From: Candidatus Poriferihabitaceae bacterium
Lineage (GTDB): Bacteria; Pseudomonadota; Gammaproteobacteria; Arenicellales; Poriferihabitantaceae
Reading direction: 5' to 3'
DNA length: 64,000 nt
Assembly: GCA_965243285.1 (NCBI GenBank)
Contig: OZ251537.1
Location: 2,057,019 to 2,121,018 of the forward strand
Part shown: positions 2,571 to 62,957 of the stretch, one piece after another
Layout of the letters: each line of letters starts with the position of its first letter
How positions within the stretch are numbered: the stretch's first letter is position 1
Made by a program: the position numbers and the translations under genes
The notes under the pieces: generated by a model
Databases searched by the model: none
Told to the model about the DNA's origin: nothing
The model's input: only the letters and a program-made list of their open reading frames with translations

Positions 2571-2572
2571 CA

Positions 2573-3388: not shown

Positions 3389-4760
3389 TATTTCAGATGT
3401 GGAAGTTAATTTTAATTTTAATTTTCATATTTCTAAATTTAATGTGCAGTCGCGAACTGCAATATCTGCGATAAAAACTATCGAAAAATATCGCGAACCC
3501 ACGCCAACCATCGCCGAAGATAGCGATGCTATTTTTGAAAAATCAATGCTAATATTTAAAGGCGATAGCGATGAAATATTATCCGAAAAAGAAATCAGAA
3601 TAGTTGCTTTGGTTGTTTTAAATAAAAGCGATGATAGAAAATTTTACGGAAAATTATTTAAAAAAATTAATGAAATAGGAACGAGACGACTTTATTCCGC
3701 TTTACTATCTTCTTATGTAATGTACTTCGATGGCACTCGTGGTAGGTTTAAATTGGTCGCCGAAATGCTGCAAAAAAACACCGATAAACTATCACGGGCA
3801 TGGCGGCGGCGAATAAATGTCATTGATGTTTTGGATTTCAACTCCATCGAAGAAAATTTTGCGAGAAAAATACTAGAACATGGTGGCGAAAATAAATTTC
3901 TCGACCAAATTGGGCTAGGTAGCTATCGTTCAAGCAAATTAGTAACCGCCGCCATCATGGCATTGGCGAAGTTAATATCGGACCAAGTTAAACAAGGCGA
4001 TTTTGATAATATAGAAACATTTATCGAAATAATTTGTGATAACAAGAGCATTAAAGGGAATGCTGGTGTGGCCGCCATGATAGGGTTATTGCAGCCATTT
4101 GTAGATAAGCAGACACCACCTGATTGGATAAAAAATATCATTAAGGATGTTTTTATTAAATCATTTTCAGACCCGCGTGTTTCACGACATCGTTGGCCTG
4201 AGATTGATGAGAAATTTGGCGGCCAAAAACTTCGCGAGGATTGTATGGCGATCTTCACGAAGTGGATTATCAACGACACCATAGATCTATTTTTTAAAAT
4301 TATCGCAGAGCACGCACCTGATAACCAGTTTGCCCCGCGGCGCGATCTCTGGAAAACCTATTTTGCTCAAAATTATGTTAGCAATGCATGGGTTATATTG
4401 GGGGCGGATGCGGTGCGGACCGCATGGAATTTACGGCAAACTGGTGGCGTAGCGAGCGGCCTCGATTGGGGCAAACTCGAAGGCGCGGGCACCAACCAGA
4501 GTGTATTGTTGATGAAAATAAAAGATTTAGTCGTAGCTGAATGGAGTCATAATGGTAAGTTCAGAGCTTGGTCAGCGAACAAACCAAGATTTAATCAAAG
4601 CAAATATCATGCGGACCAATTAAGGAAAAACTCGAATAGAATAATGACAAAAAGTGGGAACTATAGTGACGGAATTGTGCATCTGGGCGATTGGGTAAGC
4701 AGGGCGCAATCCTACATTGAAGAACAAACCGGCATCAGACTTAGCAGGAAAATTCGATGA
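3366..4760 (+). CDS. zorC: ZorC, EH-signature domain protein
   Basis: 464 aa, overlaps zorB by 23 nt and zorD by 4 nt. The C-terminal segment ...VVAEWSHNGKFRAW... fits the conserved Glu/His signature. Its position is third in the zorABCD order. Confidence 0.6.
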   Translation: MIFMKPRNISDVEVNFNFNFHISKFNVQSRTAISAIKTIEKYREPTPTIAEDSDAIFEKSMLIFKGDSDEILSEKEIRIVALVVLNKSDDRKFYGKLFKKINEIGTRRLYSALLSSYVMYFDGTRGRFKLVAEMLQKNTDKLSRAWRRRINVIDVLDFNSIEENFARKILEHGGENKFLDQIGLGSYRSSKLVTAAIMALAKLISDQVKQGDFDNIETFIEIICDNKSIKGNAGVAAMIGLLQPFVDKQTPPDWIKNIIKDVFIKSFSDPRVSRHRWPEIDEKFGGQKLREDCMAIFTKWIINDTIDLFFKIIAEHAPDNQFAPRRDLWKTYFAQNYVSNAWVILGADAVRTAWNLRQTGGVASGLDWGKLEGAGTNQSVLLMKIKDLVVAEWSHNGKFRAWSANKPRFNQSKYHADQLRKNSNRIMTKSGNYSDGIVHLGDWVSRAQSYIEEQTGIRLSRKIR

Positions 4761-7700
4761 TGAATTTCAAAATTCAGTTGCAAGATGACGGGGTTTTATT
4801 GCGGCTAAGTGAACAGACGAAAAAGTTGCTTACCACCCAAGAAAACCAGATTGGAGTTGAATGTTGGGATAAACTCAGCGCGTTTCATCACATCGAAGCA
4901 TTAGGAGTATTGCGCGCCGCCGAGGAAGAATCGAGCAAGTGTCGGGTGCTAGCGGATGGTTATGGCTACCATCTTTCATTTGAATTCGTATCCAGTTTGG
5001 AGGACGTGCATGCTCGTGCTTTAAACCTACCCGCCACATTTCCCTATCAAATTCAAATTAAAACAAGCAGCAATATCGGCTCACCTAATTTTGCCGTCCG
5101 TTGGCAAGCATTTGGCAAGGGGCGGCATCTTATAGTACAAAAAATCGGTTGTTTTTTAAATCTGGGGGAAATGCAATATCGATTACCGTCGGATATTTTA
5201 AAAATAATCACTTGTATAGATGATTACAATAATTTATTGCAGTCGGATTTTGAAATAAAAACAAAATTTGTCGCTGAACTCAAATCTATTTTGCCATTAT
5301 CCCCCAGTAAAGAAGTGGGATTTGAGGGCGAGTTGGAAACTATTTCATTGCAACATGCGTCCGCATTTTCACTTCAAATAACAGGCGATAAAAATTCTAT
5401 TAACTTTAATCCGATCTTATTTCACAAATCTGCATTGGAAAAAATTTTAGAAACCAGTGAATTATTGGATGAAAAAGAACAAATATTATCCCCAAATGAT
5501 GCCCGCAATTTTTCTGCAGCATTTAAAAATGCTAATCAAGTGAATGCTACTTATCTGTTAGGTTCATCAAACTATATCTACATTGATGCATCATTAAAAT
5601 CAGCATTAGATGTGGTTTTGACCGCATCAAAATTGTCCAAAGAAAAACGAATTGAATTCGCAAAAGCACCGCAAAAGTACATAAGAGCTAAGTTTGGCAA
5701 AAATTTAGATGATCTGTCCGATATCGATATAGAAATTGAATCGCAATTAATCGATCAATTATTCATCGAGACAAAACAATTTTCCGATAGAGTTATCGAG
5801 GTGGGTATTTGGAAAATGCCTGATTTACCGTGGTTGAAAACAGAGCCCAGTGAGTGGCTAGCCGATAATTATTCTTTCTGGATACAAGGAAAAATAGTAT
5901 GTTTTCCAGTCATGGACTTAGAAAAAGTAATAACAAAAGTAAAAAAAGCAAAGCAGAATAACGCGCACTTTTGTGAAATTGGCGGCGAGCAAGTGACCCC
6001 CAGTTGTGATTTAATTAATTCACTAACTGATCTGTCTCCAATAATGCCGAATGTTAAAGAACCAAAACCAATAACTTATACTTCATCTGATCGTATTGTG
6101 CTTTTGACAAAAGAAAACTTTGAAAATCTCGAATACTATAAAAATATCGAGTGTCGCGTTGAAAAATTAACATCCAACCCGCCGCGCTGCTTAAGTTCAA
6201 GCACCACTCTCAAAGTGCATCAACAATTGGGCGTTGAATGGTTGGTCGAAACTTACAACCGCGGTTTGCCCGGGGTATTGATGGCAGATGATATGGGGCT
6301 TGGGAAAACGCTTCAAGCGTTGGTATTTTTAGCCATTATGGTTGAGGCGGGAAAGACGGATTTCGGCACCCCCATATTGATAGTGGCGCCAGTTAGTTTA
6401 TTAAAAAATTGGCAAGAGGAGCATGAAAAGCATCTTGCCGCACACGGGCTTGGAAGGTTTGGGAAATTATATGGCAATGGTTTGAAGCAATTCAAAATGG
6501 GCAGTGGACGAGATATTGAAACCGGGGAAGCGGCCTTGGATGCGGAGAAAATCAAAAGGTGCGACTGGTTACTGACAACTTATGAAACCTTGCGTGATTA
6601 TCAGGTGTCATTTGGGCAAGTAGAGTTTTCGTGCGTTATTTTTGATGAATTGCAAAAAGCCAAAAACCCGAGAAGTTTAATTTCTAAAGGCGCCAAGGTT
6701 TTAAATGCTGAATTTTCGGTGGGGTTGACCGGTACACCGGTGGAAAATTCACTCGCTGATTTATGGACAATTATGGACATTCTAAGACCAGGACGCTTGG
6801 GGGATTTGAAAACATTTTTAGGCAAGTACCCAACTCCGAAAAATGAAAACGATCAAGAAAGCATTAATAAATTAACCCATCTTTCGAAGCAATTGCTTGA
6901 AAAATCCACCAATGCCCCGGCGCCCATTCTGCGCAGAATGAAAGCAGATTTAAAAAATAATGAGTTGCCCGAGAAAATCATCGTCCATTCAAGTGAAACA
7001 ACCGAGATGATGCCGGAGATACAGGAAAATGCTTATGCAGCGGTTTCCAATAGATTAAATGGTGGATTCATTAAAACGATTGATGCTTTAGCACAATTTA
7101 AAACCATTTCCCTTCATCCCGTATCATCAAATAACCCCGAACAAATTTCTGTGGATGAGTATATCAAAGCATCGGCTCGACTGAAAGTTACATTTGCCAT
7201 CCTCGATGAAATTCAGAAAAGAAATGAAAAAGTACTTTTATTTATAGAAAGAAGATCGCTTCAGCCTATTTTGGCATCGATAATTAAACAAAAATATAAT
7301 TTAAACACACAACCATTGATCATAAATGGCCTGATAAGCGGCGATGCCCGGCAGAAAAAAGTTAATGCTTTTCAAAAACGGCGTGACGGATTTGATGCCA
7401 TGATAATATCGCCAAAGGCAGGTGGCGTGGGGTTGACGCTCACTGCGGCGAACAATGTCATTCATGTCGAGCGCTGGTGGAATCCCGCCGTGGAAGACCA
7501 ATGCACAGACCGCGCCTATAGAATCGGGCAGACCAATCGGGTAAGGGTTTATACGCCTATTGCGAGGAGCGAATCTTTCGGCAACAAATCTTTTGATTGT
7601 GTTTTGGATGAGTTGCTCAATAAAAAAAGATCATTGGCAAGTGGTATATTCATGCCTACTGTCATTGAACATGGCGCTTTTGGTGGTGCGTTAAAATCTG

Positions 7701-8119
7701 GTGTACCTGTGCTGGCGCCTGATTTGGATGAAATTGATCGCTTGGAATATGGGGTGGATTTTGAGGAACTGATTATTACTTGGATTAGGCGGGAAAACTT
7801 TAGCGCTCGGCGCACGCCAGTCAGCCATGATTATGGCGCTGACATTATTGTAAAAAATCGTGATACTAAAAAATCCGCCATCATTCAATGTAAACATCGT
7901 GCAGACAAAACTAAAAACATTTCAGATGATGCCGCGTGTGAAGTGCTCACTGCGACCAAGCATTATGGTTTAATAAACCCCGCACTATTGGTGGTGACCA
8001 ATGCAGAATCAGCCACTGAAAAGTGTCGGGTAAAATGCCGCGATGAGAATATTATTCTGGTGCTTCGCGATGATTTGGCGAGGTTTGGTGAAATCTTAAA
8101 TCAAAACACAAAGACATGA
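4757..8119 (+). CDS. zorD: ZorD, SNF2-family helicase fused to a C-terminal Mrr-like PD-(D/E)xK nuclease module
   Basis: 1120 aa. SNF2 motifs are present: LMADDMGLGKTLQAL, VIFDELQKAKN and GGVGLTLTAANNVIHVERWWNPAVEDQCTDRAYRIGQ. The C-terminal motif HDYGADIIVKNRDTKKSAIIQCKHR is typical of Mrr_cat. Confidence 0.8.
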   Translation: MMNFKIQLQDDGVLLRLSEQTKKLLTTQENQIGVECWDKLSAFHHIEALGVLRAAEEESSKCRVLADGYGYHLSFEFVSSLEDVHARALNLPATFPYQIQIKTSSNIGSPNFAVRWQAFGKGRHLIVQKIGCFLNLGEMQYRLPSDILKIITCIDDYNNLLQSDFEIKTKFVAELKSILPLSPSKEVGFEGELETISLQHASAFSLQITGDKNSINFNPILFHKSALEKILETSELLDEKEQILSPNDARNFSAAFKNANQVNATYLLGSSNYIYIDASLKSALDVVLTASKLSKEKRIEFAKAPQKYIRAKFGKNLDDLSDIDIEIESQLIDQLFIETKQFSDRVIEVGIWKMPDLPWLKTEPSEWLADNYSFWIQGKIVCFPVMDLEKVITKVKKAKQNNAHFCEIGGEQVTPSCDLINSLTDLSPIMPNVKEPKPITYTSSDRIVLLTKENFENLEYYKNIECRVEKLTSNPPRCLSSSTTLKVHQQLGVEWLVETYNRGLPGVLMADDMGLGKTLQALVFLAIMVEAGKTDFGTPILIVAPVSLLKNWQEEHEKHLAAHGLGRFGKLYGNGLKQFKMGSGRDIETGEAALDAEKIKRCDWLLTTYETLRDYQVSFGQVEFSCVIFDELQKAKNPRSLISKGAKVLNAEFSVGLTGTPVENSLADLWTIMDILRPGRLGDLKTFLGKYPTPKNENDQESINKLTHLSKQLLEKSTNAPAPILRRMKADLKNNELPEKIIVHSSETTEMMPEIQENAYAAVSNRLNGGFIKTIDALAQFKTISLHPVSSNNPEQISVDEYIKASARLKVTFAILDEIQKRNEKVLLFIERRSLQPILASIIKQKYNLNTQPLIINGLISGDARQKKVNAFQKRRDGFDAMIISPKAGGVGLTLTAANNVIHVERWWNPAVEDQCTDRAYRIGQTNRVRVYTPIARSESFGNKSFDCVLDELLNKKRSLASGIFMPTVIEHGAFGGALKSGVPVLAPDLDEIDRLEYGVDFEELIITWIRRENFSARRTPVSHDYGADIIVKNRDTKKSAIIQCKHRADKTKNISDDAACEVLTATKHYGLINPALLVVTNAESATEKCRVKCRDENIILVLRDDLARFGEILNQNTKT

Positions 8120-11102: not shown

Positions 11103-12767
11103 ATGAAAACAACACCTGCCGAATGGGATTACATCATCATCGGCGCCGGCTCGGCGGGTTGCGTGTTGGCGAATCGATTGAGCGAAGAGGGCGGCAGGCG
11201 CATTTTGTTACTCGAATACGGCGGCAGCGACCGCAGTATTTTCATTCAAATGCCGACCGCGCTATCCATACCGATGAACACCCACCGCTTCGCCTGGCAA
11301 TTTTATTCAGAGCCCGAGCCGTGGCTGAACAACCGCCGCATGCACTGCCCGCGCGGCAAAGTGTTGGGCGGCTCATCGTCGATAAACGGCATGGTGTATG
11401 CGCGCGGCCACGCTTGGGATTTTGACCAATGGGCGCAAAGCGGCGCCGCCGGCTGGGATTATCGCCACTGCCTGCCGTACTTCAAGCGCGCCGAAGATTG
11501 GACTTTCGGCGGCGATGACTATCGCGCCGAAGGCGGGCCGCTCGGGGTTTGCAACGGCAACAACATGCGCAACCCCTTATATCGCGCCTTTATCGAGGCC
11601 GGCGTCGAGGCCGGTTATGCGCGCAGCGCCGATTACAACGGCCGCCGCCAAGAGGGTTTTGACCGCATGCATATGACGGTGCGCGACGGCGCGCGCTGCT
11701 CCACCGCCGGCGCGTATTTGAAGCCAGCGCGGCGCCGCGCCAATTTAAAAGTGCAAACCGGCGCGCTCATGCATCGCATTTTATTGCGCGATAAAAAAGC
11801 CACTGGTGTCGAATACAGTTTGGGCGATAAAAAAATGACCGCCACGGCGCGCCGCGAAATTATTATCTGCGCCGGCGCCATCGGCTCGCCGCAATTGTTG
11901 CAGCGCTCCGGTATCGGGCCGGCGGCGGTATTGCAAAATGCCGGCATCGATGTGGCGCATGATTTGCCTGGGGTAGGGGAAAATTTACAAGACCACCTCG
12001 AGTTTTATTTTCAATTTCGTTGCCGACTGCCCATCACCTTAAATAGTCAACTCAACTGGTGGCGCAAATTTTTAATCGGCGCGCGTTGGAGTTTATTCAA
12101 AAGCGGATTAGGCGCCACCAATCATTTTGAATCTTGCGCTTTTATCCGCTCGCGCGCCGGGCTAAAAGCGCCGGATATTCAATATCACTTTTTGCCCGGA
12201 GCCATGCGCTATGACGGCCAGGCGGCCTTTGATGGGCATGGTTTTCAGGTGCATGTGGGCCACAACAAGCCGCAGAGTCGCGGTCGCGTGCGCATTAAAT
12301 CGCCGCGCCCGCTGCATAAACCGTCGATTTTATTCAATTACTTACAAGCCGAAGCCGACCGCGAAGGTTTTCGCCAATGCGTGCGCCTGACGCGGGAAAT
12401 CATGGCGCAAAATGCCATGATGCCCTATCGCCGGGCGGAAATTCAGCCCGGGATAAGCGTGCAGAACGATGCCGACATCGATGCCTTCGTGCGCGCCTCG
12501 GTCGAAAGCGCCTATCATCCCTCATGCACTTGCAAGATGGGCGAAGATGCCATGGCGGTGGTGGATTCATGCACCCGCGTGCGCGGAATCGATCGCTTGC
12601 GGGTGGTGGATTCCTCCATTTTTCCCACCATCACCAATGGCAATCTCAACGCCCCGACCATCATGGTCGCCGAACGCGCCGCCGACCTGATTAAAGGTAA
12701 GGGCATGTTGCCGCCGTGCGATGCGGAAGTGGAACTGGCGACGGATTGGGCTGATCGGCAGCGGTGA
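11103..12767 (+). CDS. betA: Choline dehydrogenase (GMC oxidoreductase)
   Basis: N-terminal FAD motif [38 protein letters not shown] and [16 protein letters not shown] closely parallel E. coli BetA. C-terminal GMC signature HPSCTCKMG. Confidence 0.75.
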
Positions 12768-12874
12768 TTGATATAACGAAATCGATGTAATTTAATGATG
12801 TAATTAAATTGATATATCTAAAATAGGACTTTATATACCTACATATATAAATTTCTAAAATCAAATCGACAACG

Positions 12875-14565: not shown

Positions 14566-15070
14566 GGCAGGTGGATTTTATACAAGATTTATATACCACC
14601 TAAAGGGGCTTACTTGATTGTTGTTTTGCGATTGATTTCGGCTTTAGTTTTTGCTCCACCCTGGTTTTCGAGGGGGAGCCAAAACTGGCGGCTTTTTCGC
14701 CAGTTTTGGTGGGGGGACTTTGGCTTTTCGCTTTTGCTTTTCGCTTTTGCTTTTCGCTTTTGCTTTTCGCTTTCGCTTTTGCTTTTCGCTTTTCGCTTTT
14801 CGCTGTTGCTTTTCGCTTTTCGCTGTGGCTTTTCGCTTTTGACTTCGCTTTTGATTTGCTGTTGGTTTTTACTTTCCCCTCATTTGGGCTAATGGGTTGA
14901 AGATTTAAAGCCAAAATCAAAAAGACCAACCTCAACAGACCCCCCACCAAATCAGGCGATAAGGCTGCCTGATTTGACTCCCCCCAGATGAAGCACGGGG
15001 GGGAGTGAAACGTTAAAAGCCAGAGCCAAAAGCCAAAGCCAAAGCCAAAGCCAAAAGCCAGCCCCCCACC
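14566..15070. repeat. Modular intergenic element, copy 1 (two double-hairpin cores, module C, flanking 6-7 nt microsatellites)
   Basis: Core at 14655-14716 (gctccaccc..gggggagccaaaactggcgg..cgccagttttggtgggggg). Module C at 14876-14910. Inverted core at 14939-15010. CTTTTCG/CTTTTGC repeats lie on the left and GCCAAAG repeats on the right. Confidence 0.85.
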
Positions 15071-15984: not shown

Positions 15985-16480
15985 ATATATTTGGCTTTTG
16001 ATTTGGCTTTTGTTTTACTCCCCCCCGCTTCATCTGGGGGGAGTCAAATCTGTCCGAGCCGATAGGCGCGGGCTGATTTGGTGGGGGGACTTTGGCTTTT
16101 GGCTTTAGACTTCGCTTTAGACTTCGCTTTAGACTTCGCTTTTGGTTTTACTTTGCCCCTCATTTCGGCTAATGGGTTGAAGATTTAAAGCAAAAAGCAA
16201 AAAGACCAACATCAACAGTCCCCCCACCAAATCAGGCGATAAAGCCGCCTGATTTGACTCCCCCTAGATGAAGCGGGGGGAGTAAAACGTTAAAAGCCAA
16301 AGCCAAAGCCAAAGCCAAAGCGAAGATCAAAGCGAAAATCAACAGTCCCCCCACCAAATCAGGCGATAGAGCCGCCTGATTTGACTCCCCCCAGATGAAA
16401 CGGGGGGGAGTAAAACGTTAAAAGCCAAAAGCCAAAGCCAAAAGCCAAAAGCCAAATCAAAAGCCAAAGCCAAAATCCCC
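15985..16480. repeat. Modular intergenic element, copy 2 (three cores plus module C)
   Basis: Cores at about 16016-16090 (+), 16218-16290 (-) and 16345-16415 (-). Module C at about 16163-16199. Microsatellite polarity flips at module C. Confidence 0.85.
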
Positions 16481-17440: not shown

Positions 17441-17520
17441 GGGTGATTTTGAGGCTGATTTTTGATGCTGATTTTGAGGTTGATTTTTGAGGTTGATTTT
17501 TGAGGATGATTTTTGAGGAT
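17441..17520. repeat. Tandem array of about 6 units, 13 bp period (GNTGATTTTTGAG)
   Basis: Read directly: gctgatttttgat / gctgattttgag / gttgatttttgag x2 / gatgatttttgag. It lies immediately upstream of the rluD start in the rluD-bamD divergent region. Confidence 0.8.
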
Positions 17521-17644
17521 GAGGGCGATGCACCGATAAGCGTCGATTAGGCGTGCTAAAATACGCTATTATTCGCCGCTGCCGTGCTGCCGCGCCATCG
17601 ATGGCGAGCCGCGGATATTTTCATTCTAAAACGGAATCTTATCC

Positions 17645-18541: not shown

Positions 18542-18561
18542 CCAGTAGGGATTTTTCGCTG

Positions 18562-18591
18562 AAAAAACCGCCGCTGATGGCGGTTTTTTTT
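18562..18591 (+). terminator. Rho-independent terminator after bamD
   Basis: aaaaaaccgcc-gctgat-ggcggtttttttt: a GC stem flanked by an A-run and a T-run, so it could act in both directions. Confidence 0.7.
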
Positions 18592-18624
18592 GAGGTTGTG
18601 GGTTTGAATTCCTCGTCGGGGAGT

Positions 18625-19012
18625 GGGGTGATTTTGGCTTTTGCTTTTGCTGTTGGCTTTTGCTGTTGGCTTTTGCTGTTGCTTTCGCTGTTGCTTTCGC
18701 TTTCGTTTTTGTTTTGGCTTTAGCCGAAATAAGATGAACAGGTAAAAATCAACAGCCAAAAGTCACATCAAAATCAACAGCACCCCCCACCAAAACTGGC
18801 GATGAAGCCGCCAGTTTTGGCTCCCCCCTAAAAAGATAGGGTGGAGCAAAGCCTTAACAGCAAAAGCAAAATCAAAAGCAACAGCAAAATCAAAAGCAAC
18901 AGCAAAATCAAAAGCAACAGCAAAATCAAAAGCCAAAGCAAAAAGCAAAATCAAAATCAAAATCAAAAGCCTAAAATCAAAAGCCTAAAATCAAAAGCCT
19001 AAAATCAACCCC
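18625..19012. repeat. Modular intergenic element, copy 3
   Basis: T-rich microsatellites at 18625-18720. Inverted core at about 18775-18850 (ccccccaccaaaactggcgatgaagccgccagttttggctcccccc). 18 bp and 14 bp A-rich tandem units continue to 19012. Confidence 0.8.
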
Positions 19013-19032
19013 CCAACACCCCGACTACGGGG

Positions 19033-21905: not shown

Positions 21906-22022
21906 GGGGGTTTGGTGGGGTGTTGGCGGCGGATTGGGGAGGTTAGCCGTATGTTAATGAGTCATGTTAATGGGCCTGAGTGGCGGCATAAATTGGTGTC
22001 TGGTTGGGTAAAATAAAGGGCG

Positions 22023-22647
22023 TTATGTATCTAAATTCCCATTATTAGATTGCTATTTGGGAGGATTTTGCTTTGGTTTTTGTTGTTGATGTTAATGCTT
22101 TGCTCCCCCATGCTTTTCAGGGGGGAGCCAAAACTGGCGACTTCATCGCCAGTTTTGGTGGGGGGTGCGTTTGATTTTGATTTTGGTTTTGGTTTTTGAT
22201 TTTGGTTTTTGATTTTGGTTTTTGATTTTGGTTTTTGATTTTGCTTTTGATGTTGCTTTTGATTTGGCTTTTGTTTCGCTCCCCCCCCGCTTCATCTGGG
22301 GGGAGTCAAATCTGTCCGAGCCGTTAGGCACGGGCTGATTTGGTGGGGGGCTGTTGCTTTTCGCTTTTGCTTTTCGCTGTTGCTTTTCGCTGTTGCTTTT
22401 CGCTTTTGCTTTTCGCTTTTCGCTGTTGCTTTTCGCTGTTGCTTTGCCTTTGACTTGGCTTTTGACTTGGCTGTTGCTTTTTACCTTCCCCCTCATTTGG
22501 GCTAATGAGTTAAAGATTTAAAGGCCAAAGCCAAAGCCAAAATCAAAGCCAAAATCAAAAGCAAATCAAAAGAGAAAATCAAAAGCAAACCATCTCGGGA
22601 ATTTAGGTATATAAATCCCTAATCAAGAGGTTTAGGTATATAAATCC
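22023..22647. repeat. Modular intergenic element, copy 4 (two cores, module C, duplicated AT-rich end)
   Basis: Cores at about 22100-22165 and 22265-22345. Module C at about 22489-22524. Right end gggaatttaggtatataaatccc plus a second tttaggtatataaatccc. Confidence 0.85.
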
Positions 22648-22757
22648 CAAAATAAACCGTGGGTTGCGCAGTAGAATCTAGACCATGCGATGAAAAATAG
22701 ACCAGGCGATGAAAAACGCCCAACTCAGCGGATTTGGCTTACATTAATGCTACAAAA

Positions 22758-23553: not shown

Positions 23554-23653
23554 CGATATAAAACATCGACATAAAACATCGATATAAAACATCGACATAA
23601 AACATCGATATAAAACATCGATATAAAACATCGATATAAAACATCGACATAAA
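23554..23653. repeat. Tandem array of 7.7 units, exact 13 bp period (CGAYATAAAACAT)
   Basis: Read directly. Units alternate CGATAT and CGACAT. The array lies in the convergent intergenic space between moaE and the thioredoxin-like gene. Confidence 0.9.
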
Positions 23654-29283: not shown

Positions 29284-29354
29284 GTCGCCATTAACATGAG
29301 GCTGCAAACCATGTGGTCGTAAACATGTGGTTTTGAACATGTGGTTGTGAAGAA

Positions 29355-29384
29355 GAGACCCCGCTTAGTCGGGGTCTTTTTTTT
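29355..29384 (+). terminator. Rho-independent terminator after groEL
   Basis: gaccccg-cttagt-cggggtc followed by T8. The modular element starts directly after the T-run. Confidence 0.8.
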
Positions 29385-30106
29385 GGGATTTATATATCTA
29401 AATCTGCACGGTGGGGTTGGTTTTTGCTGTTGCTGTTGCTGTTGCTGTTGCTTTTGCTGTTGCTGTTGCTGTTGCTTTTGCTTTTGCTGTTGCTGTTAAT
29501 GCTTTGCTCCACCCTATCTTTTTAGGGGGGAGCCAAAACTGGCGGTTTCATCGCCAGTTTTGGTGGGGGGTGCGTTTGATTTTGATTTTGATTTTCGCTT
29601 TGATTTTCGCTTTGGCTTTCGCTTTGGCTTTGGCTTTGGCTTTGGCTTTCGCTTTCGCTTTGGCTTTTGGCTTTGGCTTTGGCTTTTGGCTTTTGGCTTT
29701 TGGCTTTTGGCTTTTGTTTTACTCCCCCCCGCTTCATCTGGGGGGAGTCAAATCTGTCCGAGCCGATAGGCTCGGGCTGATTTGGTGGGGGGCTTTTGTT
29801 TTTCGCTTTTGACTTGGCTTTTGACTTGGCTTTTGGTTTTTACTTTCCCCCTCATTTGGTCTAATGAGTTGAAGATTTAAAGGCAAAAGCAAAAAGACCA
29901 ACATCAACAGTCCCCCCACCAAATCAGGCGATAAAGCCGCCTGATTTGACTCCCCCCAGAAAAAGCTAAGGTGGAGTAAAACGTTAAAAGCCAAAGTCAA
30001 AAGCTAAAAGCAAAAGCAAAAGTCAAAAGCCAAACGCAGCCCCCTAAATCAGGCGCTGACCTCAAAAAAACGCCAATCGAACTGCAGATTTAGGACTATA
30101 AATCCC
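29385..30106. mobile_element. Modular intergenic element, copy 5: the most complete (archetype) copy, bounded by AT-rich terminal inverted repeats (MITE-like)
   Basis: Left end gggatttatatatctaaatctgcacggtgg. Right end ctgcagatttaggactataaatccc. Three cores (about 29500-29570 +, 29715-29790 +, 29910-29985 -). Module C at 29846-29881. A T-run is present on both flanks. Confidence 0.7.
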
Positions 30107-30547
30107 TTTTTTTGGGATTCAGATAGTTGTATTTTCTTCGATTGGGCGCGTCGTCACCACTGGGGCTGAGAAAACATCACTAAGTAGACCTCCCCCAAAT
30201 TTTGTTTGGCGGGGGGGTAGCAACCGCAGGCTGGGTCGGCTGTGGTAGTATGGGGATTGGAATCAAGGATAGATGCCGATATGCGCCGGATACTGCGCCG
30301 TTTTACTCACTGGGTCACAGGACGATGGCCGCCGGCCGCCGATGCTTGTGCCTTACGCCATGCCGATGCGCGCGCAGCGGTTGAATCAGGTGTCCACTCA
30401 TCGGCTACGGCTTGCTCGCACCAATCTGGCGTCGATTCGGCTGGTTTTTTGGCTGAATCTGGCGGCGACTCGGTTGATTCGGCCAAATCCAGCGTCGACT
30501 CGGTTGCCGGCGGCGTAAACCCCACGGCCAGGGATTCGCCAGGCGGC

Positions 30548-34524: not shown

Positions 34525-34837
34525 GGGAATTATATATCTAAATTTGCATGCTGGGTTTGATGTTGGGGTTTGATATTGCTTTGGCTGTTGGCTTTTAATT
34601 TTGATGTCGCTTTTGCTTTTGCTGTTGATATTGCTTTTGCTTTTGCTGTTGATATTGGTTTTTGCTTTTGCTGTTGATATTGGTTTTTGCTTTTGATTTT
34701 GATATTGCTTTTGGGCTTTTTCTTACTCCCCGCTTTGACTCCCCCTCCAAAAAGCAAAAGCGGGGGGGAGTGAAGAGCAAAATCAAAAGCCAAAAGCCAA
34801 AACCAAACCCACCGTGCAGATTTAGATATATAAATCC
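34525..34837. mobile_element. Modular intergenic element, copy 6 (short, with both terminal inverted repeats)
   Basis: Left end gggaattatatatctaaatttgcatgctgg. Right end ccaccgtgcagatttagatatataaatcc. A degenerate core lies at about 34725-34775. T-rich then A-rich microsatellites. Confidence 0.7.
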
Positions 34838-34869
34838 TCAAATCAACGCCAAATTCGACCGCAGTAACC

Positions 34870-40861: not shown

Positions 40862-41719
40862 TTAACATGAATCGATGGTCGACCTCAAGTCGGTTGCGGG
40901 TTTCGATAAAATTTCCGCCTTAGGCGGGCGTTCTAAAACTGCCGGCGCGGCATTGATGTTATCTAACCGCCGCTGGGCGAGTTTAACCAATTCAGGCTGC
41001 AACTCAAACGCCAGAAAATCGCGCTGGTTTTGTTGGCAGACCAGCGGGCAAGTACCTGTGCCGGCGAATGGGTCGAGTACTAAATCGCCTTTCGATGAAC
41101 TGGCCAACACTAATCTTTCGATTAATTTTTCGGGTTTTTGGATGGTGTTTAAGGCCGAGCGGCACACCAATTCTTTGGATTTATAGGTGAGTTGTTTGAT
41201 GTCGCCCCACACATCGCCGGGGTTTTTGCCGCGCCCGTTGAATTTGGTTTTGGCGTATCTACCGCCGGTCACCGAGGGTACTTTTTCACAGCGCAAGCGA
41301 TGCGCCAACTCGACCAACTGCGGCACGCGAATGTCGTCTAAATGATAATGGCGCGGCGATTTGCCGTTGATGAAGTAGGCGATGATGTCGTAATTATTGG
41401 TGTAGTTTACGCGCCCTTGCGCCAAGCGGTTGGGTTGATACCATACTATTTTTGATTTTAGATTTAGGTGCGGGCGGTAATCGATGAAGTCTATGCAATT
41501 CGCCTTGCCAAACAGATAAAGCGCGCCGCCGGGTTTTAATTTGGCGGAAAATTTTTGGATTAAATCGAGATTGAAATCTTGAATCGACGAAATTTTATCC
41601 CAAGCATTGGCGGTGACGCCATACGGGCCATCGCAGATGATTAAATCCACGCTTGCCGCATCGACTTGTGCTATCAAATCAAAAAAATCGCCGCCATGTA
41701 TTCGGTTCTTTTCAAGCAT
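40862..41719 (-). CDS. Orphan beta-class (N6A/N4C) DNA methyltransferase
   Basis: Motif IV variant IICDGPYGV comes before motif I LVLDPFAGTGT, which is the beta-class order. The islet is AT-rich. The ATG at 41719 is preferred over the track TTG at 41728. Confidence 0.75.
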   Translation of the reverse strand: MLEKNRIHGGDFFDLIAQVDAASVDLIICDGPYGVTANAWDKISSIQDFNLDLIQKFSAKLKPGGALYLFGKANCIDFIDYRPHLNLKSKIVWYQPNRLAQGRVNYTNNYDIIAYFINGKSPRHYHLDDIRVPQLVELAHRLRCEKVPSVTGGRYAKTKFNGRGKNPGDVWGDIKQLTYKSKELVCRSALNTIQKPEKLIERLVLASSSKGDLVLDPFAGTGTCPLVCQQNQRDFLAFELQPELVKLAQRRLDNINAAPAVLERPPKAEILSKPATDLRSTIDSC

Positions 41720-41748
41720 GGTTTTCAAGCATGGTTTTCAAGCATGGG
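41713..41748. repeat. 13 bp x about 3 tandem repeat spanning the methyltransferase start codon (minus strand CCATGCTTGAAAA)
   Basis: Plus strand caagcatggtttt / caagcatggtttt / caagcatggg. Each unit carries an ATG on the minus strand. Only the last one is in frame with the gene. Confidence 0.85.
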
Positions 41749-43235: not shown

Positions 43236-44609
43236 ATGAAGCCCCCAAATCACAAGCGAATTTTGCTCGGCATCACCGGCGGTATCGCCGCTTATAAAAG
43301 CCCGAGCGTGGCGCGCCGCCTACGCGAACGCGGCTGCCAGGTGCGCGTGGTGATGACCGCCGCGGCCACCCAATTCATCACCCCGCTCACGCTGCAAGCG
43401 GTCAGCGGCAATGCGGTGCATCAACATTTGTTGGATGAAGGCGCCGAATCCGGTATGGGGCATATCGAGTTGGCGCGCTGGGCTGAGCAGTTAGTGGTGG
43501 CCCCCGCCAGCGCCGATTTTATCGCCCGCTTAGCGCATGGCCGCAGCAATGATTTGCTATGCGCCGTGGCCCTGGCAACCGCAGCAACCATCACCCTCGC
43601 CCCGGCCATGAACCGCATGATGTGGCAACACCCGGCCACGCAGCGCAATGTGGCCGAGTTGGCGGCGCGCGGGGTGCGCATTATCGGCCCCGGCGCCGGC
43701 TCGCAGGCGTGCGGCGAAAGCGGCGCCGGGCGTATGAGCGAGCCTGAGGAGATTGCGGCACAAGTGGTCGGCGCCGGGCGGCCGCGTTCGTTGGCCGGCG
43801 TGAGCGTATTGATGACCGCCGGCCCCACCTGGGAGGCGTTGGACCCGGTGCGCGGGCTGAGCAACCACTCTTCCGGCAAAATGGGCTATGCCATGGCGCA
43901 AGCGGCGGCCGATGTCGGGGCTGAAGTTACGCTGGTGAGCGGACCGGTGGATGCGGCGGTGAGCGGCCGGGTTTGTAGCCGGGGTTATGACCAGTCTGGC
44001 GGGGGCGGTGGTCGGGTTTATGGTCAGCCTGGCGGGGGGGATGATGGGATTGATGGCGGCGTTAATGGTCGCCCTGGCACCGGCGGCATCGACCTCATCG
44101 CGGTGCGCTCGGCGCAAGAGATGTTGGATGCGGTGCTGGCTCGGGCTGCGACGGCGGATGTGTTCATCGGCGTGGCGGCGGTGGCGGATTACCGCCCGGC
44201 GGCAGTGAGCGCCCAAAAAATCAAGAAAAAAGCGCCGCGCATGCGCATCGACCTCATCCAAAACCCGGATATTCTGGCCACCGTGGCGGCGCTGAAAAAG
44301 GCCCCGTTCACGGTGGGCTTCGCCGCCGAAACCGAGAATGTATTAGCCCACGCCCGCGAAAAAGGCCGCCGCAAAGGCGTCGATATCATGCTCGCCAACC
44401 ATGTCGCCGAGGTGTTCGGCCGCGATGAAAATTCGGTGACGGTGATCGACTGCCGACGGGGTGGCGTTGCTGGTGGCGCTGGCGACGGCGGCGAAATCAC
44501 CGGTGAAATCACCCTGCCGCGCACCGATAAATATCGCTTAAGCCGGCAAATCATCGAACACATCGCCCCGCTGGTGCTGGCGCGACGAAAATGCGCTCAT
44601 CCCACTTAA
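43236..44609 (+). CDS. coaBC: Bifunctional phosphopantothenoylcysteine decarboxylase / phosphopantothenate-cysteine ligase
   Basis: ILLGITGGIAAYK, PAMN..MW and SSGKMG motifs. It carries a Gly-rich insert (GGGGGRVYGQPGGGDDGIDGG...) in the CoaB half. Confidence 0.9.
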   Translation: MKPPNHKRILLGITGGIAAYKSPSVARRLRERGCQVRVVMTAAATQFITPLTLQAVSGNAVHQHLLDEGAESGMGHIELARWAEQLVVAPASADFIARLAHGRSNDLLCAVALATAATITLAPAMNRMMWQHPATQRNVAELAARGVRIIGPGAGSQACGESGAGRMSEPEEIAAQVVGAGRPRSLAGVSVLMTAGPTWEALDPVRGLSNHSSGKMGYAMAQAAADVGAEVTLVSGPVDAAVSGRVCSRGYDQSGGGGGRVYGQPGGGDDGIDGGVNGRPGTGGIDLIAVRSAQEMLDAVLARAATADVFIGVAAVADYRPAAVSAQKIKKKAPRMRIDLIQNPDILATVAALKKAPFTVGFAAETENVLAHAREKGRRKGVDIMLANHVAEVFGRDENSVTVIDCRRGGVAGGAGDGGEITGEITLPRTDKYRLSRQIIEHIAPLVLARRKCAHPT

Positions 44610-44727
44610 TTTTGCCAGCCAATTTTGCCAGCCAATTTTGCCAGCCCATTTCGCCAGCCCATTTCGCCAGCCCATTTCGCCAGCCCATTTTGCCAGCCCA
44701 TTTCGCCAGCCCATTTCATCGCCAGCC
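44608..44727. repeat. Tandem array of about 9 units, 13 bp period (AATTTTGCCAGCC / CATTTCGCCAGCC)
   Basis: Read directly. It begins inside the coaBC stop codon and ends 44 nt upstream of the dut ATG. Confidence 0.9.
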
Positions 44728-46335: not shown

Positions 46336-46610
46336 TAGATATAAATTTTCTTGTTTGATTGTTGCTTGGTTTTTGATTTTGGTTTTGCTGTTGCTTTTGA
46401 TGCTTCTTCTTTCACGCCACTTAGCTTTTGCTTTTTGGAGGGGGAGTCAAAACTGGCGGCTTTATCGCCTGATTTGGTGGGGGGTTGATGTTGGTCTTTT
46501 TGCTTTTGCTTTTAAATCTTCAACTCATTAGCCCAAATGAGGGGCTATGTAAAAATCAAAAGCCAAATAAAAATCAAACCCAGCCGGGCGGATTTAGATA
46601 TATTAATCCC
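46336..46610. repeat. Modular intergenic element, copy 7 (inverted orientation)
   Basis: Core at about 46415-46485, with hybrid stem arms (caaaactggcgg...cgcctgatttgg). Module C reversed at about 46505-46545. Right end cgggcggatttagatatattaatccc. Confidence 0.8.
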
Positions 46611-46640: not shown

Positions 46641-47420
46641 TCAGCGCTTGACTATCGTCATGACCGCAAAAATGGCGGCGGCGATTACCACGATGGAAGG
46701 GCCGGCCGGGGTATCGAGCCACATCGACAGCGCCAGGCCGCCGCCCATGGAGGCTATGCCGAATACGGCGGCGAGCAGCGCCATGCCTTCGGGCGAGCGG
46801 GCTACGTAGCGGGCTGCAGCCGGCGGGATGATGAGCAATGAGACGATGAGCAAAGCGCCGACCACTTGCATGGCGAGGGCCACTACCACGCTCAGCAAAA
46901 TGAAAAAAATGGCGCGGATTTGCGGCTCGCGGACGCCGCCGACGATGGCTAATTCGCGATGCGCGATGAGTGCTAATAGCGGTCGCCAGATGGTCGCCAG
47001 AATGAGCAGCACGCCGCCGCCGCCGAGATAAATCCACCACACATCGGCGGCGCGCAACGCCAGGATGTCGCCGAATAAATAACCGATGAGGTCGACGCGC
47101 ACGCCCGGCATCAGCGCCAACAACACCAGTCCCAACGCCAGCGTGCCGTGGGCGAGGATGCCGAGCGCCGCATCGCTGCTTAAATCCCGCCGCCGCTGCA
47201 TCAGCGCCAACAGCGCCGATACCGCCAGGCACACCAGCAGAATCGCCAGTTGTAAATTCAGCGCGAAAAATAGCCCCAAGGCGATGCCGAGCAGCGCCGC
47301 ATGCGCTAACGCGGCGCCGAAATACGCCATGCGCTGCCACACCACCGCGCACCCCAACGGGGCGCAGAGGATGGCTACGCCGACGCCGCCGAGCAGGGCG
47401 CGCCATAAAAAATCATCCAT
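46641..47420 (-). CDS. znuB: Zinc ABC transporter permease
   Basis: MDDFLWRALLGG...VVWQRMAYFG..LAHAALLG parallels ZnuB. The start at 47420 overlaps the preceding stop (ATGGATGA). Confidence 0.85.
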   Translation of the reverse strand: MDDFLWRALLGGVGVAILCAPLGCAVVWQRMAYFGAALAHAALLGIALGLFFALNLQLAILLVCLAVSALLALMQRRRDLSSDAALGILAHGTLALGLVLLALMPGVRVDLIGYLFGDILALRAADVWWIYLGGGGVLLILATIWRPLLALIAHRELAIVGGVREPQIRAIFFILLSVVVALAMQVVGALLIVSLLIIPPAAARYVARSPEGMALLAAVFGIASMGGGLALSMWLDTPAGPSIVVIAAAIFAVMTIVKR

Positions 47421-47684
47421 GCGCATCGGCCGCCGGCAGCGGCTGGATGTCGCCGTGGGCGCCATGTACATGATCGTGGTGATGTTGATAAGGCGCTAAT
47501 CCAGCGCCCGCAGCCGCCACCGGGGCGCAGAGGATGGCTACGCCGACGCCGCCGAGCAGGGCGCGCCATAAAAAATCATCCATGCGCATCGGCCGCCGGC
47601 AGCGGCTGGATGTCGCCGTGGGCGCCATGTACATGATCGTGGTGATGTTGATAGGGCGCTAATCCAGCACCCGCAGCCGCCGCC
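47359..47684. repeat. 163 bp tandem duplication (2 copies, 3 mismatches) of the znuC-3'/znuB-5' junction
   Basis: 47359-47521 and 47522-47684 were aligned base by base. Differences are A/G, G/A and A/G. The junctions share the GGGGCGC microhomology. Confidence 0.9.
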
Positions 47685-52172: not shown

Positions 52173-52314
52173 ATCAGCGCCGCCGAATCGCCGCCGACGG
52201 TTGATAGCCATCAAAGTGGCGGCTCATCGACACCATGCGCGCGGTTTATTACCATTAATATATCGCTATGGTGTGCTAGGGATTAACCCAGCGGCGGTAG
52301 GTTGATTATTAATA

Positions 52315-52464
52315 GGGGATTTATAGTCCTAAATATGCAGTTCGATTGGCGTTTTTTTGAGGTCAGCGACTGATTTAGGGGGCTGCGGTTGTTTTTTGCT
52401 TTTGCTTTGGTTTTTGATTTTGCTTTTGGCTTTTGCTGTTAACGTTTTACTCCCCCCCGCTTCA
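52315..52464. repeat. Modular element, copy 8a: left arm, truncated inside the core by the methyltransferase-HNH cassette
   Basis: The 72 nt end module ggggatttatagtcctaaatatgcagttcgattggcgtttttttgaggtcagcgactgatttagggggctgcg is the inverse of 30035-30106 with 2 mismatches. The core breaks off after actcccccccgcttca. Confidence 0.8.
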
Positions 52465-52543
52465 GAGGGTGTGCGAAAAGCCACCTTGTTTGATATTTTA
52501 CTCTGAAATCATTTATCAAAAAAGGTACAATAGGCGCTTACAA

Positions 52544-52590
52544 CATTCCATCGATGCATTCCATTGATGCATTTTATTGATGCATTCAAT
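52544..52590. repeat. 13 bp x about 3.5 tandem repeat (CATTCCATYGATG) containing ATGCAT/ATCGAT palindromes
   Basis: cattccatcgatg / cattccattgatg / cattttattgatg / cattcaatc. It lies in the 300 bp untranslated stretch 3' of the methyltransferase-HNH gene. Confidence 0.8.
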
Positions 52591-52767
52591 CACTTGCCAT
52601 CAAAATATTATCATGCCTTCCACAAAATCATACACCGCGCATCTATCTACGCAGTGCAGTATGTTCAATAGCATGCCGCAAGTTGCCAAGAAGGCGATGA
52701 CTCTTGCTGCCAACGGTAGAAAATTTATAACCGGCGAGCCTAATAAATTGTACTATGGATGGCTACA

Positions 52768-54156
52768 TTACTCATCGCTTTTCCCCCACGCCGCGGCGTG
52801 TTCATTAATAATATCTTGGCGGCGCTGTATCTGTTCTTCAGTTAACTTCCCCCATAAAAAATGCATATCCTTATCGCCCTTCTTGCTATTACAGGCACGG
52901 CATAGCAACTGTAAATTCTCCATAACATCGCGCCCGCCTTTGGCTCTGGCTAATTTGTGGTCGACTTCTAAATCATCCTCCATCTTTTGCTCTAAACACC
53001 CTTTGCAAATAGGCTGCTTACCCTTACGGTAAAACTCTTGCAATAAATTCTGTTTGGCATCCTTTATAGACACCTTTTCATACCCCAATTCATCCGCCCG
53101 TTTTGGCAAGGGTTTTGGTTTTTTTACCTTTGCTTTGGCGGGTTTATTAGTATCAAAGCGATAGTTATCGAATGGGCTTGCCTCTATTCGGTCGTGCAAT
53201 ATCTCAATCGCCTTCTCATTTTGGTCGATGCCAATCCATTGCCTATCTAACGCCGCCGCCGCCATGCAAGTAGTCGCGCATCCGCAAAACGGGTCTAAAA
53301 CTAAATCCCCCTCATTGCTACTAGCCTTAATTATGCGATTTAACAGGGCGAGCGGTTTTTGGGTTTGATAGGGGGTTTTTTCTCGATGATTGGTTAAAGC
53401 CGCAATATCAACCCACCACGATTCGGGAATTTTACCGCCGCCGAATTTAGTATCCACTTGCGTATGGTTTCGGCGATTTTTGATGTCCACGGAAGCGGCG
53501 ATACAACTACTTTCGCCCTCCACACGCCCCCGCCTGGCAAGAGTTTCTGAGCTATACGGAACGCGCACGGCATTGCGGTGGAAAAGTGTTTTTTTAGACT
53601 TAGCGTAAAAGAAAATAGTGTCGTGTTTTCGCGGGAATTGCATACGGACATTACCGGGGCCGGTATAACACCAAACAATTTCATTCCTAAAATTGTTCTT
53701 GCCAAACACACAATCAAGCACCATTCTCAAATAAAAATTGGCACTATGGTCACAATGTAAATACAGTGAACCCGTAGATTTTAGCAACCGATGCATCTGC
53801 ACAATCCGCGATGCCATAAAGGCCAAATAATTATGCATTGACCGACTATGCATATCCTCTGCCAACACAATCATCTGCCACATATCCGGGTATGCAAACT
53901 TCAGATTCAGCGCATGGGCATAATCCACATCCTTTTTGCTCCATGTATCATCAAACGAATGGGCTGGCGTTTTACCCTTGCGCAAAATATCACTCTTAAA
54001 CGGCGGATCAGTGTAGATTAAATCCACCATGTTTGATTCCATACCCATCATAATCGGCAGATTATCACCGATATAAAGGGTTTTCTCATACTCCGCCGGC
54101 CCACTTATGCCACCAACTCCGCGTAGGTTAGCCTTTTGACTTGTTTTATCAATCAT
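52768..54156 (-). CDS. Beta-class DNA methyltransferase fused to a C-terminal HNH nuclease domain
   Basis: Motif IV LIYTDPPF comes before motif I LVLDPFCGCATT. The C-terminus CKGC..LEVDHKLARAKGGRDVMENLQLLCRACNSKKG is an HNH (CxxC...H..N...CxxC) motif. It is AT-rich. The ATG at 54156 is preferred; the track GTG is at 54174. Confidence 0.8.
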   Translation of the reverse strand: MIDKTSQKANLRGVGGISGPAEYEKTLYIGDNLPIMMGMESNMVDLIYTDPPFKSDILRKGKTPAHSFDDTWSKKDVDYAHALNLKFAYPDMWQMIVLAEDMHSRSMHNYLAFMASRIVQMHRLLKSTGSLYLHCDHSANFYLRMVLDCVFGKNNFRNEIVWCYTGPGNVRMQFPRKHDTIFFYAKSKKTLFHRNAVRVPYSSETLARRGRVEGESSCIAASVDIKNRRNHTQVDTKFGGGKIPESWWVDIAALTNHREKTPYQTQKPLALLNRIIKASSNEGDLVLDPFCGCATTCMAAAALDRQWIGIDQNEKAIEILHDRIEASPFDNYRFDTNKPAKAKVKKPKPLPKRADELGYEKVSIKDAKQNLLQEFYRKGKQPICKGCLEQKMEDDLEVDHKLARAKGGRDVMENLQLLCRACNSKKGDKDMHFLWGKLTEEQIQRRQDIINEHAAAWGKSDE

Positions 54157-54221
54157 TCCGCTATTATTACACACCCTAAAACCTCATGCAAGCAATGGGT
54201 CAACAACCATATAATTCCCAA

Positions 54222-54570
54222 ACAAAAGCCAAAGCCAAAGCCAAAAGCCAAAAGCCAAAGCCAAAGCCAAAGCCAAAAGCCAAAAGCCAAAGCCAAAAGC
54301 CAAAAGCCAAAGCCAAAAGCCAAAAGCCAAAGCCAAAAGCCAAAAGCCAAAGCCAAAAGCCAAAAGCCAAAGCCAAAATCAAAAGCGACAATCAAAAGCG
54401 ACAATCAAAAGCCGAGTCAAAATCAAAATCAAAAAGCCCCCCACCAAAACTGGTGATGAAGCCGCCAGTTTTGACTCCCCCTCATGGTGAAGCGGGGGGA
54501 GTGAAGATTAAAAGCCAAAAGCCAAAAGCCAAAATCAAAACCACCGTGCAAATTTAGATATATAAATCCC
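54222..54570. repeat. Modular element, copy 8b: right arm with terminal inverted repeat
   Basis: About 200 bp of GCCAAAA/GCCAAAG repeats. Inverted core at about 54435-54510. Right end ccaccgtgcaaatttagatatataaatccc. Confidence 0.85.
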
Positions 54571-54612
54571 ATTAATAGGTTTGCCCTCCAAACGCTGGCT
54601 GCGATGGCGGGA

Positions 54613-61668: not shown

Positions 61669-61674
61669 ATCCCT

Positions 61675-62921: not shown

Positions 62922-62957
62922 CGGAGTTTTCTTCGTTAGTAATGAAGAAAACTCCGC
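62921..62957. terminator. Perfect 14 bp stem-loop between cas2 and the array (no U-tract)
   Basis: GCGGAGTTTTCTTC-gttagtaat-GAAGAAAACTCCGC. The left arm starts at the last base of the cas2 stop codon. Confidence 0.4.

Follow-up and report, generated by a model that had tools for sequence, protein, structure and literature searches.

Eight intergenic elements with a common build

The stretch analysed here (the window) comprises 64,000 nt of contig OZ251537.1, ordinary chromosomal DNA of an uncultured gammaproteobacterium with a GC content of about 60% and a genome of 2.79 Mb. Its genes include groES/groEL, comEC, parC, nadC, rluD, bamD, moaB/D/E, sarcosine oxidase, znuABC, dut and coaBC, and between the genes lie eight large repetitive elements, built from common parts in one order, which are probably MITEs (short for miniature inverted-repeat transposable elements). 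An earlier note on this DNA had listed nine regions filled by such elements, numbered here R1 to R9. The parts were found in all nine, but the count was lowered to eight, as regions 8 and 9 belong to a single element (R8+R9). Together the elements occupy 3829 nt, or 6.0% of the window as estimated before, and 41% of its intergenic DNA, and every intergenic gap of at least 438 nt in the window holds one. The short copies measure 275-722 nt, and the copy with cargo measures 2255 nt.

The common order of the parts is a terminus (T), a microsatellite, a double hairpin (U) of type A, a microsatellite, U of type B, a microsatellite, a centre (C), a microsatellite of opposite polarity, an inverted U of type C, again such a microsatellite, and an inverted T. 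The terminus is a 30-nt sequence, GGGATTTATATATCTAAATCTGCACGGTGG, the first 20 nt or so of which are themselves an imperfect palindrome (GGGATTTA-N6-TAAATC). It was located with 0-5 mismatches at 29385(+), 34525(+), 34809-34838(-), 46581-46610(-) and 54541-54570(-), and in weaker or variant form at 22018(+), 22590-22619(-), 22630-22648(-), 30088-30106(-) and 52316(+). The 17-nt core of T gave 17 strand-hits against 0.21 expected, several of them being one palindromic site counted on both strands. The AT-rich inverse termini reported in the earlier note were thus recovered in several copies, but none was recognisable in R1, R2, R3 or at the left end of R7. Separately, a cluster of T-like palindromes (e.g., GGACTTTATATACCTACATATATAAATTTC) lies at 12764-12855 between two convergent genes. 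It has no hairpin, centre or microsatellite modules and may represent a remnant or minimal termini.

The double hairpin U, a G/C-clamped module, is about 75 nt long and reads CTCCCCCC-loop-GGGGGGAG, CAAA(A/T)C(T/A)GGCG-loop-complement, GTGGGGGG. It begins with CTCCCCCC and has no GTAG/CGTC head; it holds invariant G-runs, and a T-rich run follows each unit. The core motif of U matched 13 times against 0.10 expected, and a covariance model returned the same 13 copies, in line with the double-hairpin cores claimed before, together with a partial copy at 34720-34781 and a very weak match at 30179-30261. Apart from the latter, no U was found by this model outside an element body. The centre C is a 35-nt sequence, CCCCTCATTTGGGCTAATGRGTTGAAGATTTAAAG, present in five copies with at most two mismatches (14876, 16156, 22489, 29848 and, inverted, 46510-46544). 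These are the five copies recognised previously, one of them inverted, although three of the positions then given (16163, 29846 and 46505) were a few bases off. Arrays with periods of 6, 7, 12 or 13 were detected by Tandem Repeats Finder (TRF) in all regions, the 6/7-nt units often having a 12-13-nt super-period. The AT skew changes sign in all eight elements, from -0.51 to -0.83 in the left arms (T-rich) to +0.56 to +0.90 in the right arms (A-rich), which bears out the strand-switching runs of 6-7-nt units described earlier. Within each element, left-hand and right-hand U units likewise face one another.

An alignment of the 13 U units was used for pairing analysis. Both stems were 96.3% paired across the units, compared with 37-63% when the partners were slid by 1-3 columns, and 18 doubly changed cells were counted in the stems, a number reached in 0/500 shuffles. 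Three subtypes can be told apart by these changes: stem 2 of A and that of C differ in two pairs, each swapped from A-U to U-A, and B has a stem that is longer and different. The doubly changed cells would therefore reflect only about three independent subfamily events, and the counts overstate the independent evidence. One unit, U12 (46418-46492, in R7), has a 5' arm of type A and a 3' arm of type C, which shows recombination between copies. On the T-rich strand, 12 G.U cells were counted against one C.A cell, few independent events lying behind this count. This hints that the T-rich strand is the one whose folding matters, whether as the strand transcribed from either flank or as one particular DNA strand. 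In three element regions, promoter-like and terminator-like sites were no more numerous than in shuffles, and neither role is therefore claimed for the elements. Read in reverse complement, C includes TTCAACTCATTA, a match to the core TCAANNNNTTR of sites bound by integration host factor (IHF); as a candidate IHF site it is speculative and was given little weight.

Ends, flanking duplications and descent of the copies

The archetype and fullest copy, R5 (29385..30106, 722 nt), lies between tandem genes. It consists of T(+) at 29385-29414, U type A at 29497-29577(+), U type B at 29711-29798(+), C at 29848-29882, U type C at 29906-29988(-) and an end module with a variant T at 30035-30106(-), with microsatellites between successive modules, the one after C being of opposite polarity. 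A single strand of R5 folds end to end as one long hairpin (-327.7 kcal/mol, z = -15). Three other elements also have T at both ends. R4 (22018..22648), in a divergent promoter region, contains a degenerate T(+) at 22018-22036, U type A at 22093-22172, U type B at 22268-22356, C at 22489-22523, an inner T(-) at 22590-22619 and an outer T(-) at 22630-22648. R6 (34525..34838), a short copy between tandem genes, has T(+) at 34525-34554, microsatellites, the first hairpin only of a U at 34720-34781 and T(-) at 34809-34838. R8+R9 (52316..54570), between convergent 3' ends, is a single element of 2255 bp in the orientation opposite to R5. In these four elements the termini form terminal inverted repeats (TIRs) with 0-7 mismatches in 30 nt.

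The outer flank was read at each oriented T match, which gave four end pairs (R4, R5, R6 and R8+R9). In three of the four, exact direct repeats abut the outer ends, and all three targets are AT-rich. At R4 the 8-bp repeats occupy 22010-22017 and 22649-22656, so that the left junction reads AAAATAAA followed by GGGCGTTATGTATC and the right junction TATATAAATCCC followed by AAAATAAA. At R8+R9 they occupy 52308-52315 and 54571-54578 (ATTAATAG followed by GGGATTTATAGTCC on the left, TATATAAATCCC followed by ATTAATAG on the right). It was this ATTAATAG pair, outside 52316 and 54570, that identified the former regions 8 and 9 as the two ends of one element. At R5 the repeats are at 29377..29384 and 30107-30113 (TTTTTTTT followed by GGGATTTATATATC, and CTATAAATCCC followed by TTTTTTT), and the T-run noticed before on both flanks thus consists of eight T on the left and seven on the right. 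With the base composition of the flanks, a match in 8/8 bases at a fixed position has a probability of about 3.5e-5. Duplications at three of four end pairs are therefore strong evidence for insertion by staggered cuts with an 8-bp duplication at AT-rich targets. The exact flanking 8-bp duplications are a new result of this analysis.

The left duplication of R5 (29377-29384) coincides with the T-run of the groEL terminator. The homopolymer length at the R5 flanks is uncertain because the window and a second assembly of the same strain (L081) differ almost only by homopolymer indels (18 single-base indels, nearly all of this kind, and one substitution). Between the two assemblies the microsatellite arrays do not differ. 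Directly to the right of the R5 duplication, the stretch 30114-30241 begins GGGATTCAGATAG, the first six bases being common with T, and contains a CTCCCCC-N-GGGGGGG hairpin at 30190-30220, where the U model gave a weak match of 12 bits. This stretch may be an older, decayed copy, or may hint at a target preference beside GGGATT.

The left end of R8+R9 consists of the end-module T (52316-52387), a microsatellite and a U that breaks off within its first hairpin at about 52464, and the right end of a microsatellite from 54222, a U at 54431-54514(-) and T(-) at 54541-54570. The place of the centre is taken by a segment of 1.76 kb with about 45% GC (52465..54221, -), which was read as cargo or as a secondary insertion because all other copies are without it. 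It carries a gene (52768-54174, -) for a 468-aa protein in which an N6/N4 DNA methyltransferase is fused to a C-terminal HNH nuclease. The methyltransferase part resembles orphan phage or plasmid methylases (32-44% identity), and none of the phage or plasmid records in the collections covers at least 80% of the protein. The methyltransferase-HNH protein was considered as the mobilising enzyme and rejected, since its gene is found in one copy only, replaces the normal centre, is low in GC and is orphan-methylase-like. Its position between element ends shows how such elements could acquire cargo. A second N6/N4 methyltransferase gene was noted at 40862-41728, in another GC dip.

The remaining copies are less complete. 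R1 (14566..15070), in the divergent promoter region between an acyl-CoA ligase gene and nadC, has U type A at 14644-14722(+), a long microsatellite, C at 14876-14910 and U type C at 14934-15016(-). R2 (15985..16480), lying where the 3' ends of nadC and rluD converge, has U type B at 16008-16094(+), C at 16156-16190 and two U of type C (16214-16294(-) and 16341-16422(-)). R3 (18625..19012), at convergent 3' ends between bamD and parC, contains a left microsatellite, U type A at 18777-18860(-) and a right microsatellite, with neither C nor T. R7 (46336..46610) contains a microsatellite, the hybrid U at 46418-46492(+), the inverted C at 46510-46544 and T(-) at 46581-46610; its left end is unclear. 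Termini in R1-R3 and a left partner for the R7 terminus were looked for, and none was convincing. As the elements occur in every intergenic context, namely divergent promoter regions (R1, R4), convergent 3' ends (R2, R3, R8+R9) and tandem genes (R5, R6), a preference for AT-rich targets fits better than a fixed host role.

Pairwise BLAST against R5 showed that the copies share long collinear blocks: 348 nt at 86% identity in R2, 242 nt at 87% in R1 and 395 nt at 75% in R4, and, in inverted orientation, 192 nt at 89% in R3 (29417-29607 of R5) and 220 nt at 81% in R7. These blocks take in the microsatellites too. Judged by this collinearity, the copies are deletion derivatives of one master of about 720 nt, not separately assembled modules. 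Furthermore, the 72-nt end module of R5 (30035-30106) is the reverse complement of 52316-52387 with exactly two mismatches, as claimed earlier, and the near-identity of the end modules in R5 and R8+R9 points to recent copying. In R8+R9 the two types of end seen in R5 have changed places, so the element is an R5-like copy in the opposite orientation. The recurrence of T, U and C, the arm skew and the end-module repeat are not due to chance.

Relatives, searches beyond the window and neighbouring features

The NadC protein of the window is identical to a recorded protein of the same strain, and the next-best NadC proteins are 62-64% identical. The three relatives compared (L082, L083 and L084) stand at this family-level distance and are not close strains. 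They keep the order acyl-CoA ligase gene, nadC, rluD, bamD, (purC), parC, moaB, moaD and moaE. In L082 and L084 the gaps equivalent to those of R1, R2 and R4 measure 62-100, 1-13 and 9-74 nt, compared with 599, 529 and 849 nt in the window. Between bamD and parC all three relatives have purC; in the window the interval 18542-19032 (491 nt) is without purC and holds R3. No element sequence and no U structure was found at the loci of the relatives. These compact, element-free syntenic gaps show that, at this family-level distance, the elements are lineage-specific additions. For GroEL the best match among those listed was 80% identical, in a metagenome-assembled genome of Acidiferrobacteraceae; the 80 loci listed came from distant taxa only, and no element was present in them.

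Per 21 kb, TRF gave a single row in each of L082 and L084 and six rows in L083, compared with 100 rows in the 64-kb window. Intergenic arrays with a 13-nt period also occur in the window at 17447-17522, 23554-23653, 41709-41747, 44609-44717 and 52544-52591, with 3 to 8.4 copies of unrelated units; they lie outside the element bodies, except for 52544-52591, which is in the cargo segment. A 14-nt array is present at 29310-29351. This distribution suggests a genome-wide tendency to 13-nt tandem duplication, the cause of which is unexplained.

When the translation of one copy was searched against 5.8 billion proteins, a single match was obtained, P0132, a protein of 161 aa from the same genome that is encoded outside the window. 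P0132 is the translation of two U units and a microsatellite (poly-Leu), and is a spurious open reading frame (ORF) on a further element copy, a gene-calling artefact. It indicates that the family reaches beyond the window. The search says little about host range because gene callers rarely call ORFs in such elements. Stop-free stretches within the elements are low-complexity translations of the repeats, and no gene was called in the R1, R2 and R3 gaps of L081.

BLAST of the elements against 258 fetched loci gave no match, and the element sequence had no match in plasmid or phage collections. In Rfam no match reached the gathering score across the whole window; permissive, sub-threshold matches to plant microRNA precursors were rejected as generic long-hairpin similarity. 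Scans of metagenome and viral sequences with the 17-nt hairpin motif returned single chance matches only, the pattern being too short to inform on distribution.

Three other features of the window were recorded. A low-GC (36-48%) block of four genes at 591-8119 is probably an acquired anti-phage island: its first protein is Zorya-like (591-2570), and its last (4757-8119) matches type I Zorya ZorD with E = 1e-102, below the curated cutoff of that family. A type II CRISPR-Cas locus at 58237-63982 comprises Cas9 (1143 aa), Cas1, Cas2 and 15 copies of the 36-nt repeat GATTATACAGGGGGGGAACAGGTAGGGCTAAGACAAC. A 3-kb contig from another sample (L259) encodes an identical Cas2, and its array aligns at about 76% and has other spacers, so other strains of the organism exist in public data; no element site lies on that contig. 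In addition, a 163-nt tandem duplication at 47345-47670, with copies 96-97% identical, takes in the beginning of znuB, the end of the ABC ATPase gene and the gap between them.

Mode of spread and comparison with known systems

Taken together, these data make it probable that the family consists of non-autonomous TIR transposons of the MITE type which duplicate 8 bp of target and are moved in trans by a transposase encoded elsewhere. Several traits of MITEs were found here, namely TIRs, an abutting duplication at three of four end pairs, no coding capacity for a transposase and multiple dispersed copies. In size, the archetype goes beyond what is usual for MITEs of bacteria (below about 300-500 bp). 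The build is also of the foldback type in architecture, not in homology, with inverted tandem-repeat arms around a unique centre. The mobile, MITE-like family proposed in the earlier note is accordingly upheld by the duplicated ends, the collinear copies, the compact gaps of the relatives and the L081 gaps in which no gene was called, and the alternative of spread by recombination is disfavoured because it does not predict target duplications.

In the mechanism proposed, the termini would be bound by a DDE transposase whose gene lies elsewhere in the 2.79-Mb genome and which would make 8-bp staggered cuts at AT-rich sites. This would explain why, in a genome of 60% GC, the elements landed in the T-runs of terminators and in promoter regions. 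Insertion sequence (IS) families with 8-bp duplications include IS256, ISL3, IS1595 and IS66, and IS256 is linked to the Mutator-like elements (MULEs). The microsatellite arms would then lengthen and shorten through slippage during replication, truncated and hybrid forms would result from deletions and from recombination among the copies, and the methyltransferase-HNH gene would have been acquired in the centre of one copy.

Several observations weigh against this explanation. The 64-kb window contains no transposase; the R6 end pair is without a duplication (flanks AAATTTTA and CAAATCAA); and R1, R2, R3 and R7 are missing one terminus or both. All three duplicated 8-mers are AT-rich and of low complexity, and one of them is a homopolymer which also serves as the tail of a terminator. 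The comparison with relatives is at family level only, the nearest other genomes being 62-64% identical in NadC. Finally, with its 722 nt and its hairpins conserved through compensatory changes, the element exceeds the typical bacterial MITE in size and degree of structure, which leaves room for a selected host function. A host role of the elements as two-sided blocks to transcriptional read-through, or through IHF-mediated bending at the centre, is speculative. Rather doubtful, too, is the wider idea that the family is a bacterial counterpart of Foldback transposons, in which the arms and hairpins would be selected for transposition or as two-sided barriers to host transcription, and in which one lineage-specific repeat-generating process would lie behind both the elements and the 13-nt arrays.

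Three explanations that do without a TIR transposon were weighed, and each is much less likely than the MITE explanation. According to the first, the elements are structural or regulatory DNA or RNA selected by the host, such as bidirectional transcription terminators or insulators, stabilisers of mRNA 3' ends, small RNA genes or nucleoid-protein sites, and mobility is secondary or ancient. It would account for hairpins that are 96% paired (37-63% when slid) with 18 doubly changed cells that no shuffle out of 500 reached, for the T-rich run after each U, for the location of several copies between convergent genes, and for the 12 G.U cells against one C.A cell on the T-rich strand, a hint that the structured strand is the one polymerases read from either flank. 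It is nevertheless unlikely. Promoter-like and terminator-like sites are no commoner than in shuffles, no Rfam family was matched at threshold, copies also sit in divergent promoter regions (R1 and R4) and directly against the nadC start, the modules kept vary freely between copies, and the relatives do without the elements. Moreover, the doubly changed cells come down to about three subfamily events, so that their number overstates the independent support.

The second explanation treats the elements as mosaics like the repetitive extragenic palindromic sequences (REPs) and bacterial interspersed mosaic elements (BIMEs). The hairpins of about 75 nt would then be the mobile or selected units, spread as single strands by a REP-associated tyrosine transposase (RAYT) of the IS200/IS605 type and clustered in alternating orientation with linker motifs as BIMEs are in Escherichia coli, and the centre would be an IHF site of the kind known from BIME-1/RIP elements. 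The 13 units with invariant G-runs and stems kept by compensatory changes, the opposed orientation of left and right units, the mosaic look of the copies and, as a reading of sequence only, the fit of TTCAACTCATTA in the reverse complement of the centre to the IHF core are all compatible with it. Transposition of the IS200/IS605 type through single strands yields neither TIRs nor target duplications, and both are present here (30-nt TIRs and 8-bp duplications). The units were inherited in long collinear blocks together with the microsatellites, not scattered, and none lies outside the elements; the window contains no Y1 transposase; and the 75-nt units are without the GTAG/CGTC head described for REPs (PMC3733652). 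This explanation was accordingly judged very improbable. The least probable is growth in place, by local expansion of microsatellites and hairpins and gene conversion between regions with no transposition: the abundance of tandem repeats (100 TRF rows in 64 kb including the unrelated 13-nt arrays, against 1-6 per 21 kb in the relatives) and the exchange between copies seen in the hybrid U12 speak for it, but it leaves unexplained the defined termini with exact duplications at three sites, the shared succession of modules in copies that lie 7-25 kb from one another, and the inverted R8+R9 with the end types of R5 swapped.

If confirmed genome-wide, the MITE explanation would describe an unusually large, structured and dense MITE family in a small and otherwise compact genome, and a prokaryotic example of a foldback build known from eukaryotes. 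The family offers a natural system for asking what maintains hairpins and microsatellites within selfish DNA and how genes tolerate insertions of 500-800 nt in their promoters and terminators. In practice, short-read assemblies will break at such elements and gene callers will be misled by them, and one copy already stands in the databases as a 161-aa "protein".

With regard to sequence, for which Rfam (at gathering score) and the plasmid and phage collections gave no match, the earlier claim that such a family has not been described stands; the architecture has partial precedents. Bacterial MITEs such as Correia/CREE, ERIC, RUP, Nezha and MITEAba12 (PMC2229807; PMC3184786) are likewise non-coding and intergenic, have TIRs and AT-rich targets with target-site duplication, fold into long stem-loops and occur in many dispersed copies per lineage. 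Such MITEs are described in review as shorter than 200 bp and often with TA ends, and an IHF site has been reported in Correia elements (PMC2229807). The present family differs in its 722-nt master, its 8-bp duplication, its ends beginning with GGG and its body of microsatellites and three double-hairpin subtypes, and no sequence resembling it turned up in the searches. BOX elements of Streptococcus pneumoniae (PMC3049150) and the intergenic mosaic elements of Neisseria also have variable internal modules between conserved ends. BOX elements, however, are 100-300 nt long with the structure boxA-boxB(n)-boxC, have no microsatellite arms and no established 8-bp duplication, and are unrelated in sequence. 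In the BIMEs and REP-RAYT systems of Escherichia coli (PMC2817692; PMC3733652), opposed, clustered G/C-rich extragenic palindromes are separated by linker motifs, in some cases with a central IHF site. REPs, in contrast, measure 20-40 nt, have a GTAG/CGTC head and leave no target duplication as they spread, whereas the hairpins described here are embedded in a TIR-bounded unit with 8-bp duplications.

Another precedent is BrickBuilt, a MITE of Porphyromonas gingivalis (PMC4596501), which has an internal tandem array between leader and tail units and small inverted-repeat ends, is always intergenic, varies in length and is confined to one host lineage. BrickBuilt belongs to another host phylum, has another sequence and contains one 23-nt minisatellite in one orientation, while the elements of the window have 6/7-nt units (13-nt super-period) in many variants, a strand switch at the centre and hairpin modules. 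A further precedent is given by the Foldback-type transposons, whose target duplications of 7-9 bp are similar in size to the 8 bp found here. In these transposons, such as FB of Drosophila, Galileo (PMC3573991) and Tetris (PMC4079207), long inverted tandem-repeat arms of variable length surround a unique centre that is empty or carries genes, and the whole element folds back. They differ in being eukaryotic, kilobase-scale and mobilised by MULE or P-type transposases, so the likeness is architectural only, with no evidence of homology. Among bacteria, a build in which long repetitive inverted arms with hairpin modules surround a unique centre is unusual.

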